A stretch of 64,000 bases of DNA, taken from the NCBI RefSeq assembly GCF_003334355.1, contig NZ_QOWP01000021.1, one strand, 5' to 3'. Shown here one piece after another: positions 32,465 to 40,073 of the stretch. How positions within the stretch are numbered: the stretch's first letter is position 1; each line of letters begins with the position of its first letter. Made by a program: the position numbers and the translations under genes. The notes under the pieces are model-generated. The model was not told the DNA's origin. It searched no databases and worked only from the letters and a program-made list of their open reading frames with translations. Origin of the DNA: Escherichia coli (GTDB lineage Bacteria; Pseudomonadota; Gammaproteobacteria; Enterobacterales; Enterobacteriaceae).

Positions 32465-33213
32465 AATCATTATTTACGTATCAGGAAGAGTTAAGGGTAC
32501 AAGGGGTACTCGATGGCGGTCTATATTTCATGACTAACGCCATTTCAAGGAAGAAGTGCGGTGGGTGGTTTCGAATGAGGGCTGGTGTTTTGGTACGTGG
32601 CACGCCACTGCAATGTATTTATCCATCAGTACTCATTCAAAAGTACCTGGAAAAAATGCCTGCTATGCCAAGCGGGCAAATTGCTTACATGTGGAATTAA
32701 GTAATTAACGATAAAGCCAGAGTATTATCATTTATTATACCCCTTCATTTAATCAGGTTAATTACTCAAATCACTGAACTATTCTCTGTTCGCTCACTGA
32801 TGATAAGTGAGTACCACAACCAATGTATGTAGAACAATGCCGTAGAGTAAGGATGAAATGTCTCTGCCACGCCTTAAACATCTACTACTGACCAGAACAC
32901 CCGCCGCAGGCAGATGAGTTTTGTGAGCGTTACAGGAGCGTGGCTATGCTCATTAACCAACGCTATTGAGATATAAATTTCTAACACTTGAAAAACGATT
33001 TTCACTAATAAATTATAACGGTTTTTTTTATCATACAGCGAAATAACCTTTTGTTTATTAAATTTAACATTCCTGTGCTAATTTAATTAAAAGTTCCATG
33101 CGTAGCAAGTGAAGCAGTTAATGTCAGTAATTGTCTCAAATGAGCGTTTTTTATAGTGACAAACAGTAATAACATTAAAAATAGCCATGTAGACATTAAT
33201 TGAGGAATAGACA

Positions 33214-33696
33214 ATGTTAGTTAGTAAAAGCAACGGATTTAACGCTAGCGCAGTTTTGGGTAGTGGAAGTTATAATGAAAATAAATCTTCTAAACACATG
33301 GAGCTACTAGCTCATAGTATTTTAAAATTAATTTGTAAGGAAGCTGCATCAGAGACGTATCGCGGTGCTCTTGAAACTTTACAAAAAATGATGTCTGAAT
33401 GTATATATCAAGAAGGCAACGCCTTTGTCATTATGGGAGCTGGAGAACAATTAAAACGTATTAAATATGAAGTTGGTGAAAATAACTTAAAGGTATTCAA
33501 CGTACACTTTAATAATAATCACGAGTTAGTTAGTTCTGGTGAGCCTGACGTAATATGTTTAAGCAAGCAGGTCTGGGAAAATCTTCTCATTAAACTAAAG
33601 CTGGAAAACAATGAAAATGTGTTTTCTGAAACTAAAAAATTATCGAATAAAAATAATGCCGATCAGTTTTTTGAATGCGCTAAAAGAAATGAATAG
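33214..33696 (+). CDS. Hypothetical protein (AT-rich island gene)
   Basis: 160-aa ORF in AT-rich DNA next to tRNA-Ile; no recognisable motifs. Confidence 0.4.
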   Translation: MLVSKSNGFNASAVLGSGSYNENKSSKHMELLAHSILKLICKEAASETYRGALETLQKMMSECIYQEGNAFVIMGAGEQLKRIKYEVGENNLKVFNVHFNNNHELVSSGEPDVICLSKQVWENLLIKLKLENNENVFSETKKLSNKNNADQFFECAKRNE

Positions 33697-38400: not shown

Positions 38401-40073
38401 GCGGTACGGCAATCGTCTACGCAGGTACGCTGGCGGATGCATCGGTCAGTGGCGCGACAGGAAGCCTGTCGTTAATGACGCCACGGGATAATGTTACGCC
38501 AGTTAAACTCGAAGGGGCGGTCCGGATTACCGATAGCGCGACATTGACTCTGGGAAATGGCGTCGATACCACGCTTGCCGACCTGACGGCTGCCAGCCGG
38601 GGCAGTGTCTGGCTTAACAGCAATAATTCCTGTGCAGGTACCAGCAACTGCGAATATAGAGTAAACAGTTTGCTACTCAACGACGGTGATGTTTATTTGT
38701 CAGCACAAACAGCAGCGCCTGCCACAACTAACGGTATCTACAATACGCTGACAACCAATGAACTTTCCGGTAGCGGTAATTTCTACCTGCATACCAACGT
38801 TGCAGGCTCCCGGGGCGATCAACTGGTCGTCAACAACAACGCCACTGGTAATTTTAAAATCTTTGTTCAGGATACCGGCGTCAGCCCACAGTCTGACGAC
38901 GCGATGACGCTGGTGAAAACAGGGGGAGGGGATGCTTCGTTTACGCTGGGCAATACCGGCGGTTTCGTTGATCTTGGGACCTATGAGTATGTCCTGAAAA
39001 GTGACGGCAACAGCAACTGGAACCTGACCAATGATGTCAAACCCAACCCGGACCCCATCCCAAATCCAAAGCCAGACCCAAAACCCGATCCAAAGCCAGA
39101 CCCAAATCCAAAACCAGACCCTACTCCCGATCCAACGCCGACACCCGTTCCGGAGAAACGCATTACGCCTTCTACGGCAGCCGTACTCAATATGGCAGCA
39201 ACATTACCGTTGGTATTTGATGCTGAGCTAAACAGTATTCGCGAGCGGTTGAACATAATGAAAGCGAGTCCACACAACAATAATGTCTGGGGGGCGACGT
39301 ATAACACCCGTAATAATGTCACCACCGATGCGGGTGCCGGGTTTGAGCAGACGCTGACCGGAATGACAGTGGGGATCGACAGCCGTAATGATATTCCTGA
39401 AGGAATTACCACGCTAGGCGCTTTTATGGGCTATTCCCATTCACATATCGGTTTTGATCGCGGAGGACATGGCAGTGTGGGCAGTTATTCTCTGGGCGGC
39501 TATGCCAGTTGGGAACATGAAAGTGGTTTCTATCTGGACGGTGTCGTGAAGCTGAACCGTTTTAAAAGTAACGTAGCAGGTAAAATGAGCAGCGGTGGAG
39601 CCGCCAATGGCAGTTACCACAGCAACGGGCTGGGCGGTCACATTGAAACCGGGATGCGATTTACCGATGGTAACTGGAACCTGACGCCGTATGCATCGTT
39701 AACGGGGTTCACCGCTGATAACCCCGAATATCATTTATCCAATGGCATGAAATCGAAATCAGTCGATACCCGCAGTATATATCGTGAACTGGGCGCAACG
39801 CTGAGTTACAACATGCGTCTGGGGAACGGTATGGAAGTTGAGCCGTGGCTGAAGGCGGCTGTGCGCAAAGAATTTGTCGATGATAACCGGGTGAAAGTGA
39901 ATAGTGACGGTAATTTCGTCAATTATTTGTCGGGCAGACGTGGAATATACCAGGCAGGTATTAAAGCCTCATTCAGCAGTACGTTAAGCGGGCATCTTGG
40001 GGTGGGGTATAGCCATAGTGCCGGTGTGGAATCCCCGTGGAACGCGGTAGCTGGTGTGAACTGGTCGTTCTGA
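35490..40073 (+). CDS. ypjA: Adhesin-like autotransporter (YpjA/AIDA-like): extended signal peptide, repetitive passenger, Pro-rich linker, C-terminal beta-barrel
   Basis: Start MKFMNRTSPYY after agagga RBS; reiterated GG(T/S)Q.V passenger repeats; KPNPDPIPNPKPDPKPDP linker; ends ...GVNWSF. Confidence 0.8.
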   Translation: MKFMNRTSPYYCRRSVLSLLISALIYAPPGMAAFTTNVIGVVNDETVDGNQKVDERGTTNNTHIINHGQQNVHGGVSNGSLIESGGYQDIGSHNNFVGQANNTTINGGRQSIHDGGISTGTTIESGNQDVYKGGISNGTTIKGGASRVEGGSANGILIDGGSQIVKVQGHADGTTINKSGSQDITQGSLTTNTTINGGRQYVEQSTVETTTIKNGGEQRVYESRALDTTIEGGTQSLNSKSTAKNTHIYSGGTQIVDNTSTSDVIEVYSGGVLDVSGGTATNVTQHDGAILKTNTNGTTVSGTNSEGAFSIHNKVADNVLLKNGGHLEVSHSANKTIIKDKGTMSVLTNAKADATRIDNGGVMDVAGNATNTIINGGTQNINNYGIATGTNINSVTQNIKSGGKADTTIISSGSRQVVEKDGTAIGSNISAGGSLIVYTGGIAHGVNQETGSALVANTGAGTDIEGYNKLSHFTITGGEANYVVLENTGELTVVAKTSAKNTTVDAGGKLIVQKEAKTDTTRLNNGGILEVQDGGEAKHVEQQSGGALIASTTSGTLIEGTNSYGDAFYIRNSEAKNVVLENAGSLTVVTGSRAVDTIINANGKMDVYGKDVGTVLNSSGTQTIYASATSDKANIKGGKQTVYGLATEANIESGEQIVDGGSTDKTHINGGTQTVQNYGKAINTDIVSGLQQIVANGTAEDSIINGGSQVVNEGGLAENSVLNDGGTLDVREQGSATGIQQSSQGALVATTRATRVTGTRADGVAFSIEQDAANNILLANGGVLTVESDTTSAKTQVNAGGREIVKTKATATGTTLTGGEQIVEGVANETTINDGGIQTVSANGEAIKTKINEGGTLTVNDNGKATDIVQNSGAALQTSTANGIEISGTHQYGTFSISGNLATNMLLENGGNLLVLAGTEARDSTVGKGGAMQNLGQDSATKVNSGGQYTLGRSKDEFQALARAEDLQVAGGTAIVYAGTLADASVSGATGSLSLMTPRDNVTPVKLEGAVRITDSATLTLGNGVDTTLADLTAASRGSVWLNSNNSCAGTSNCEYRVNSLLLNDGDVYLSAQTAAPATTNGIYNTLTTNELSGSGNFYLHTNVAGSRGDQLVVNNNATGNFKIFVQDTGVSPQSDDAMTLVKTGGGDASFTLGNTGGFVDLGTYEYVLKSDGNSNWNLTNDVKPNPDPIPNPKPDPKPDPKPDPNPKPDPTPDPTPTPVPEKRITPSTAAVLNMAATLPLVFDAELNSIRERLNIMKASPHNNNVWGATYNTRNNVTTDAGAGFEQTLTGMTVGIDSRNDIPEGITTLGAFMGYSHSHIGFDRGGHGSVGSYSLGGYASWEHESGFYLDGVVKLNRFKSNVAGKMSSGGAANGSYHSNGLGGHIETGMRFTDGNWNLTPYASLTGFTADNPEYHLSNGMKSKSVDTRSIYRELGATLSYNMRLGNGMEVEPWLKAAVRKEFVDDNRVKVNSDGNFVNYLSGRRGIYQAGIKASFSSTLSGHLGVGYSHSAGVESPWNAVAGVNWSF

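Follow-up and report, generated by a model that had tools for sequence, protein, structure and literature searches.

The region downstream of ileY in an Escherichia coli genome is a K-12-type ileY–ypjCB–pinH–ypjA locus within a strain-variable glaH–ssrA block

We consider it very probable that the DNA at 32465-40073 of the window (the whole 64,000-nucleotide stretch that we analysed), together with the tRNA gene just before it, is the familiar E. coli K-12-type locus ileY–ypjCB–pinH–ypjA, that it makes up the right-hand portion of an accessory block of 10.6 kb, that YpjA acts by the route outlined below, and that pinH and the IS3 scrap are inert; this confidence applies to the whole explanation as one joint claim. 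The locus is made up of an extra rare-codon tRNA, a broken gene, two dead mobile-element scraps, and an intact, previously described surface adhesin, YpjA/EhaD, whose gene is the only working protein gene present. It is already known: the annotation of K-12 and of thousands of RefSeq genomes includes it, and YpjA/EhaD has been catalogued as an adhesin. The locus is of little importance overall. The analysis yielded these corrections: (i) the tRNA is Ile2 rather than Met; (ii) two open reading frames (ORFs) are one nonsense-split gene; (iii) the invertase is most probably inert debris; and (iv) the variable unit is the entire glaH–ssrA interval.

Over 13.8 kb the window shares 99.3% identity with K-12 MG1655; its identity to strain LR-06 is 99.8%, and genes follow one order in both comparisons. 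The features discussed here are listed below, with the evidence for each in brackets.

29452-40082, no strand: 10.6-kb block that varies among strains, bounded by glaH and the spacer next to ssrA (EC958 alignment, presence/absence among genomes)
29576-31828, minus: ygaQ, an alpha-amylase-family pseudogene with internal stops, 31-40% GC (RefSeq LR-06 and K-12)
32389-32464, plus: ileY, tRNA-Ile2 with CAU anticodon, decoding the rare AUA codon (ARAGORN; Rfam tRNA, 73.8 bits; RefSeq; literature)
33214-34587, plus: ypjCB pseudogene, the K-12 ORFs ypjC and ypjB (same frame; NCBIfam NF050179; TAG at 33694-33696)
34843-34929, plus: 87-nt remnant of an IS3-family transposase gene (DNA match to annotated IS3 transposases)
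34921-35094, plus: pinH, non-functional, about 57 codons from the interior of a serine DNA invertase of the Pin/Gin/Hin type (homology)
35113-35498, plus: ypjA leader region (RefSeq annotation; 89%-identical copy beside ymgJ)
35315-35434, plus: hypothetical 39-aa ORF inside the ypjA leader (RefSeq annotation)
35499-40073, plus: ypjA/ehaD, intact AIDA-type classical (type Va) autotransporter adhesin (98.6% identity to K-12 ypjA; domains)
39039-39146, plus: proline-rich (PNPKPDP) linker of YpjA (TRF periods 6, 12, 18 and 42; repeat family D1)
40083-40234, no strand: conserved spacer of 152 nt, next to the 3' end of ssrA in genomes that lack an ssrA island (EC958 and PEC1012 alignments)
40552-42936: P4-type primase of the ssrA element
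51278-52477: integrase of the P4-like ssrA element

The block at 29452-40082 contains the ygaQ pseudogene, ileY, the ypjCB pseudogene, the IS3 and pinH scraps, and ypjA. What remains of ygaQ is a set of ORFs of 263, 228 and 110 aa; strain MLI108K3 carries an intact copy. In EC958, a strain of phylogroup B2, the flanking sequences match window positions 29240-29451 and 40083-40234, the whole block is absent, and glaH neighbours ssrA, the two lying 683 nt apart where the block is missing. Between the EC958 flanks are 333 unrelated nt, which showed no similarity when compared with the block sequence. Because this unrelated DNA stands in the block's place, the difference is a replacement and not a clean insertion or deletion. 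Of 5426 E. coli genomes, about half carry the block; approximately 43% of the 5426 have no match covering 80% of 28800-33300, and in the lowest-ranked of the sampled matches to that interval the similarity is confined to the glaH end. On the other side, a P4-like element integrated at ssrA starts right after the spacer, about 165 nt past the ypjA stop, just as a sequence-only reading of this DNA had described when it placed the region back-to-back with an ssrA satellite. In genomes without the ssrA element, the end of ypjA is 160 nt from ssrA.

The tRNA that the sequence-only reading put immediately before 32465 is indeed a tRNA-Ile. ARAGORN reads its CAT anticodon as Met; the identical gene is annotated tRNA-Ile in RefSeq, and ileY, the decoder of ATA, is its published name. 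It was the sole RNA family found in an Rfam search of 29000-41000, and it provides the cell with a further, second gene for tRNA-Ile2, which decodes AUA. AUA makes up 20-35% of isoleucine codons in ygaQ, ypjCB and ypjA, versus 0-8% in most flanking genes. Base composition is likewise atypical against the 52-59% GC of most flanking core genes, with 33-39% in ygaQ, 34% in ypjCB and 49% in ypjA. The DNA does not, as had been proposed, turn AT-rich at the tRNA: GC is already 31-40% from 29250 onwards, so that the tRNA has AT-rich DNA on either side, and GC is 42% directly 3' of it. The pseudogenes, the invertase and IS3 scraps, the richness in AT and AUA, and the presence in about half of the 5426 genomes support a reading of the region as horizontally acquired, decayed, strain-variable DNA.

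Two hypothetical ORFs had been noted after the tRNA. Both are present, at 33214-33696 and 33796-34587, but they share one frame and belong to a single gene, ypjCB, which is broken by one in-frame TAG (33694-33696) where O157:H7 has CAG (Gln). The NCBIfam model NF050179 (YpjCB) matches at profile positions 1-160 and 218-465. In O157:H7 the gene is intact and encodes 449 aa, with Pfam DUF5507 and DUF5508 on the protein, and it is intact in some other strains too; here, ypjCB is a nonsense-mutated orphan gene. A phmmer search with YpjCB against 1.84 billion representatives gave 43 matches, all but one of them fragments of the same family; the lone match outside it was weak (E = 4e-4) and was judged spurious. 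In a word-indexed protein search, only E. coli-type proteins of at least 86% identity appeared among the 120 matches listed. For the same protein PADLOC gave no result and PHROGs just one family of unknown function. Foldseek with a YpjCB model against the PDB returned nothing at E <= 0.001, with TM-scores of about 0.1; the AlphaFold2 model was built from a 13-sequence alignment and has a mean pLDDT of 43.9, which makes the structural route uninformative. We think it unlikely that YpjCB, an E. coli-confined orphan of low GC, is a functional protein specific to its lineage, perhaps secreted or interacting with the host, whose expression is aided by ileY. Under such a reading, the co-resident AUA-decoding tRNA might aid expression of both YpjCB and YpjA, and the glaH–ssrA block would be a small self-supporting accessory module with the tRNA as cargo, not target.

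The Pin/Hin-type serine invertase fragment proposed at about 34921-35160 passed the check for serine-recombinase homology. The pinH frame is open from 34924 to 35160, and its homologous span (34921-35094) matches Gin residues 41-95 of 193 (E = 4e-11), Pfam Resolvase positions 48-103 of 145, and a PHROG DNA invertase. It keeps residues ~38-94, or ~57 of ~190 codons (about 30% of the protein), and has neither the catalytic-serine N-terminal region nor the C-terminal DNA-binding domain; the RefSeq label is 'recombinase family protein, missing N-terminus and C-terminus'. Its DNA is 76-82% identical to coliphage invertase genes, that of phage P2 included. The adjoining 87-nt remnant is 88-91% identical in DNA to annotated IS3 transposases; on its translated frame the NCBIfam IS3 match is weak. 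Coliphage DNA invertases such as that of P2 normally invert phage tail-fibre segments. Given this usual role and the coliphage, P2-like identity, pinH is, on homology, most plausibly a final remnant of a prophage since lost and not a ypjA switch, and the pinH and IS3 pieces would both be inert debris.

The 1527-aa autotransporter predicted beyond the invertase is real, running from an ATG at 35490 (or, with 1524 aa, from the RefSeq start at 35499) to 40073. We identified ~20 matches to Pfam AIDA (PF16168; best E = 9e-24), a Pertactin domain (PF03212; E = 9e-46), an Autotransporter beta-domain (PF03797; E = 1.7e-46), the TIGR01414 barrel (329 bits against a cut-off of 16), and the TIGR04415 19-residue strand-loop-strand repeat. 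The C-terminus reads NWSF, and the N-terminus, read by eye from the sequence only as MNRTSPYYCRRSVLSLLISALIYAPPGMA/AF, is a candidate Sec signal peptide. Residue periodicity is 18-19 aa (z ~8 versus shuffles), which bears out the description of a passenger built of G-rich units of roughly 19-20 aa. The linker that had been read in the passenger was also located: at 39039-39146 the sequence is KPNPDPIPNPKPDP, and this is the only DNA-level tandem repeat within ypjA. The ypjA leader and the ypjA 3' end are duplicated at the ymgJ–minE locus, with an 89%-identical copy in many genomes.

Secretion and a beta-helix fold would follow from YpjA's family membership. By homology, the putative Sec signal peptide would bring the protein to the periplasm, the C-terminal beta-barrel would go into the outer membrane, and the ~1050-residue passenger would thread out and fold as a right-handed beta-helix. 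The G-rich repeats would be its 18-19-residue rungs, the pertactin-type autochaperone segment would assist folding, and the proline-rich spacer would sit ahead of the barrel. Reviews citing Roux et al. (2005) and work on EHEC state that YpjA, when expressed, promotes adhesion and biofilm formation, and we predict the same for this strain; according to the literature, no structure of YpjA is published.

Past phase or length variation had been suggested from the invertase remnant and the passenger repeats, and neither suggestion is supported. Every spanning genome among the matches listed has a collinear pinH interval with an equally truncated invertase, including one in which the interval is interrupted by an IS1 insertion. 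No inverted repeats flanking the ypjA leader were found, only weak 14-16-nt inverted pairs; a search for a GATC cluster, a homopolymer or a simple-repeat tract found none; and a promoter/terminator scan showed promoter enrichment not above shuffles. Neither the intact recombinase of a Hin/Gin-type switch nor its invertible segment, flanked by inverted repeats and occurring in both orientations, was found. For length, TRF detected no DNA-level tandem array in the passenger. The comparison of repeat copy number across strains used 27 full-length alleles in 60 sampled rows (there are ~2441 near-full-length alleles in the 5426 genomes). These 27 alleles are 4564-4598 nt long, a maximum difference of 34 nt that is less than one 57-nt unit, and no length classes at multiples of 57 nt occur among them. 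Indels between alleles are 6 nt, and a copy difference was seen only as a 6-nt unit in the proline-rich linker. One large deletion was observed (1310 nt, 38279-39588); it shifts the reading frame and cuts into the barrel, and therefore represents decay, not variation. Contingency-locus variation in repeat number was not found among these ypjA alleles.

Two other accounts of this DNA have to be weighed. We regard it as very unlikely that a decayed island sits at the 3' end of tRNA-Ile, with an invertase that once switched ypjA and passenger repeats that expand and contract. The genes from ypjCB to ypjA do lie on the 3' side of ileY, which is a genuine attachment site: the match of strain STECUZB006 to the window stops exactly at 32464, with other DNA beyond, and SpLE1-like elements use an attB sequence common to ileX and ileY according to the literature. 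However, no integrase was found between 32465 and 40073, where the serine-invertase scrap is the sole recombinase; the 23-nt tRNA 3' end, allowing up to 3 mismatches, occurs once in the 64-kb window, i.e. without an attR copy; and the polymorphic block takes in the tRNA and starts 2.9 kb ahead of it, at 29452. Of the marks of a tRNA-integrated genomic island, the atypical composition is there, whereas an integrase, a direct repeat and a tRNA-bounded polymorphism are not, and this classification is not supported; the decay in the earlier idea of a tRNA-associated island is supported, the targeting of the tRNA is not. The invertase fragment is ~400 nt upstream of ypjA, but it is a truncated inner piece beside an IS3 scrap, and the ypjA module with its leader begins at 35113, past pinH, with a separate paralogue at minE that has no invertase. 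The small length differences among ypjA alleles are set against 6-nt indels, a passenger without DNA tandem repeats, and a large deletion that is decay.

The other account, which is possible although we doubt it, takes the whole 29452-40082 block as what is left of a single older element that entered at the 3' end of ssrA, with ileY as cargo and later ssrA elements stacked onto it. The short distances from ssrA to glaH where the block is absent (683 nt) and to the ypjA end where no ssrA element is present (160 nt) are in keeping with this, as are the co-occurrence of AUA-rich genes with an AUA-decoding tRNA and the phage-type invertase and IS3 debris within the block. Against it, the block ends have no integrase or att repeats, and the uneven GC (31-39% in ygaQ and ypjCB versus 49% in ypjA) and the ypjA paralogue elsewhere indicate piecemeal assembly. 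Loss in lineages without the block also fits the glaH–ssrA polymorphism equally well as gain by its carriers. We keep to the K-12-type locus within a strain-variable block, with inert pinH and IS3 scraps, as the best explanation.

The pinH piece aligns with the phage Gin/Pin/Hin/Cin invertases but, unlike them, has lost both functional ends, and no recombination sites were found. YpjA scores far below the NCBIfam equivalog cut-offs for Ag43 (340 vs 1200 bits) and AIDA-I (260 vs 1200), and it is neither protein proper by these scores; no Ag43-style GATC/OxyR cluster is present upstream of ypjA, and no heptosyltransferase gene adjoins it among the neighbouring ORFs and annotation. With the self-associating autotransporters AIDA-I, Ag43 and TibA, among which a published phylogeny places it, YpjA shares the AIDA repeat, the pertactin-type autochaperone, the beta-barrel and the 19-residue repeat. 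Its O157:H7 orthologue, EhaD, has the same architecture and neighbours at 96.8% DNA identity, and the ehaD allele is 12 nt longer, through one 6-nt passenger indel and one extra 6-nt linker unit. K-12 ypjA is 98.6% identical in DNA over its full length, with 59 substitutions and the same flanks, and the window allele lacks 6 nt (2 aa) at 36471. Different elements are integrated downstream at ssrA, a P4-like satellite in the window and CP4-57 in K-12. The gene content, order and orientation of ileY-ypjC-ypjB-pinH-ypjA in the RefSeq/EcoCyc annotation of K-12 MG1655 match the window, and the two share the TAG-split ypjCB, the truncated recombinase and the 39-aa ORF.

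We compared positions 32300-40300 with 5426 complete E. coli genomes by megablast and found near-identical DNA in other E. coli, at identities up to 100%. The same gene order is annotated in strain LR-06 and K-12 MG1655: gabD-lhgO-glaH, ygaQ (labelled an alpha-amylase pseudogene), tRNA-Ile, ypjCB (a pseudogene), the invertase (a partial "recombinase family protein"), a hypothetical 39-aa ORF, and ypjA, labelled "adhesin-like autotransporter YpjA/EhaD". By local BLAST, window 26511-40279 aligned with K-12 over 13.8 kb at 99.3% identity. Because of this shared order and identity, we identify the locus as the K-12-type ileY-ypjC-ypjB-pinH-ypjA, in the orientation opposite to the K-12 map. 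The sequence features noticed earlier are real and were all annotated already; YpjA/EhaD is also in the literature.

Features of the locus and of the neighboring ssrA-integrated element (window positions)
29576-31828, ygaQ, alpha-amylase family, pseudogene in the window and K-12 (internal stops)
~40238-52661, P4-like ssrA-integrated element, with integrase, P4-type primase, and Icd-like protein
40552-42936, minus strand, P4-type primase of the P4-like element
43444-43995, minus strand, Icd-like protein of the P4-like element
47172-50697, plus strand, 860-aa helicase and 313-aa partner in the P4-like element
51278-52477, minus strand, integrase of the P4-like element

At 32389-32464, ARAGORN calls a tRNA-Met with anticodon CAT, and Rfam also finds the tRNA; the identical gene is tRNA-Ile in RefSeq. 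According to the literature, ileY, upstream of ypjC in K-12, decodes the rare ATA codon, and the ileY gene of strain Crooks is likewise mis-annotated as Met. The RefSeq annotation and this literature bear out the original assignment to tRNA-Ile. ileY is also a real attachment or breakpoint site, because the match of one strain, STECUZB006, to the window ends exactly at 32464, followed by different DNA, and because an attB sequence common to ileX and ileY serves SpLE1-like elements. The STECUZB006 island DNA 3' of ileY (from position 15676 of that locus onwards) includes a 5.1-kb gene with a TcdA/TcdB-glycosyltransferase domain and a 3.8-kb DUF3491 gene.

The sequence-only reading took the locus for a decayed island at tRNA-Ile. 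Its decay and the use of ileY as an attachment or breakpoint site fit that description, but no integrase lies between 32465 and 40073, the tRNA 3' end was not found a second time in the window, and the variable unit contains ileY. In strain EC958 (phylogroup B2), glaH lies 683 nt from ssrA; window 29240-29451 and 40083-40234 have their counterparts in its flanks, separated by 333 nt of unrelated sequence, and the variable unit is therefore 29452-40082, with ileY inside. Nor does the DNA turn AT-rich immediately after the tRNA, as had been claimed: GC is already 31-40% from 29250 on, 3 kb before the tRNA, and 42% just past it. Positions 28800-33300 are covered to at least 80% in ~57% of genomes, and ypjA is at least 80% present in 45%. 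The locus is only loosely a tRNA island; "accessory glaH-ssrA block with a tRNA inside" is the more fitting description. The AUA share of isoleucine codons is 20-35% in ygaQ, ypjCB, and ypjA versus 0-8% in most flanking core genes, and ileY, inside 29452-40082, is a further gene for the AUA-decoding tRNA-Ile2; AUA-rich genes and an additional tRNA that reads AUA thus occur together in the block.

Next to the end of ypjA lies the P4-like element, as the description "back-to-back with the ssrA satellite" had it; in one strain that has no ssrA element, the distance from the end of ypjA to ssrA is 160 nt. The helicase and partner of the P4-like element are possible defence cargo. Near each of its ends lies one copy of a 23-nt direct repeat (40306-40328 and 52529-52551).

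Two hypothetical ORFs had been described after the tRNA (33214-33696 and 33796-34587). Both are present but form one gene: they share a frame, with a single TAG at 33694 between them, and correspond to positions 1-160 and 218-465 of the NCBIfam profile "YpjCB family protein". ypjCB is nonsense-split in both the window and K-12, and intact in O157:H7 (449 aa, with Gln at the position of the TAG) and MLI108K3 (484 aa). Pfam finds DUF5507 and DUF5508 only. All matches listed in a word-indexed search were E. coli-type proteins at identities of at least 86%, and phmmer against 1.84 billion representatives returned same-family fragments only, apart from one weak match outside the family that we judged spurious. 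The AlphaFold2 model was poor (pLDDT 43.9), and no fold match was found for it. YpjCB is an orphan family: genomes of the E. coli type were the only ones in which it was seen. Downstream, a hairpin at 34708-34735, with a strong 10-bp stem and T-tracts on either side, resembles a bidirectional terminator. ygaQ is intact in MLI108K3 (750 aa), where ypjA is frameshifted; which genes of the block have been lost differs from strain to strain.

The proposed serine-invertase fragment, pinH, was confirmed by homology to Gin (residues 41-95 of 193, E = 4e-11), Pfam Resolvase (positions 48-103 of 145), and PHROG DNA invertase (E = 3e-14), and its DNA is 76-82% identical to coliphage DNA-invertase genes, including that of phage P2. 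The frame runs from 34924 to its stop codon at 35158-35160, with homology over ~57 codons (34921-35094). A probe search found no further invertase pieces in other frames, so the fragment lacks both the catalytic-serine region at the N-terminus and the DNA-binding domain at the C-terminus. Directly upstream lie 87 nt of an IS3 transposase gene (34843-34929). The interval with both remnants is covered to at least 80% in 3004 genomes, and the invertase decay is old, since all genomes listed that span the pinH interval have the same truncated arrangement.

The autotransporter described as 1527 aa long has an intact ORF (GC 49%) with autotransporter domains. That length counts from an ATG at 35490; the RefSeq start at 35499, which better fits the spacing from AGAGG at 35485-35489, gives 1524 aa and is used for numbering here.

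Domains of YpjA (residues from the 35499 start)
64-944, about 20 matches to Pfam AIDA repeats
~1055-1177, Pertactin-type autochaperone
also present, proline-rich segment, Autotransporter beta-domain, and TIGR01414 barrel
10 stretches, TIGR04415 (19-residue strand-loop-strand repeat)

In the passenger, residue autocorrelation is highest at lags 18-19 (z ~8) and shows harmonics at 35-36 and 53. The 19-20-aa G-rich units reported earlier do exist and probably form the rungs of a beta-helix of the AIDA type.

The invertase remnant and passenger repeats had seemed to suggest past variation in phase or length, but this was not supported. TRF found no tandem repeats in the passenger, whose direct-repeat families (18-34 nt, 62-83% identity) are too diverged at the DNA level to count as tandem; the only true tandem repeat in ypjA is the Pro-rich linker (39039-39146). 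Across a ranked genome sample, full-length alleles span 4564-4598 nt, a spread smaller than one 57-nt unit (one passenger repeat). In length, the K-12 allele is set apart from that of the window by a single 6-nt indel at 36471; the O157:H7 allele shows the indel too, together with one more 6-nt unit in the linker. The only large variant, in PEC1012 and similar strains, is an out-of-frame 1310-nt deletion (38279-39588) that cuts away the passenger's end together with part of the barrel. The gene is annotated as frameshifted, the two aligned pieces overlap by 10 nt at the deletion junction, and the variant is a case of gene decay. Upstream of ypjA we found no flanking inverted repeats, GATC cluster, homopolymer, or simple-repeat tract.

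The ypjA leader (35113-35470, which holds the 39-aa ORF) and the gene's final 345 nt (39727-40073) recur, at 89-96% identity, between ymgJ and minE in BL21 and the majority of E. coli genomes, as a paralogue with an internal deletion. This paralogue, what is left of a second ypjA-like gene, places the start of the ypjA "module" downstream of the invertase scrap. Reviews note no published YpjA structure, cite adhesion and biofilm phenotypes, and group YpjA with Ag43/AIDA-I/TibA-like biofilm-forming autotransporters. YpjA scores far below the NCBIfam cut-offs that define Ag43 and AIDA-I proper.
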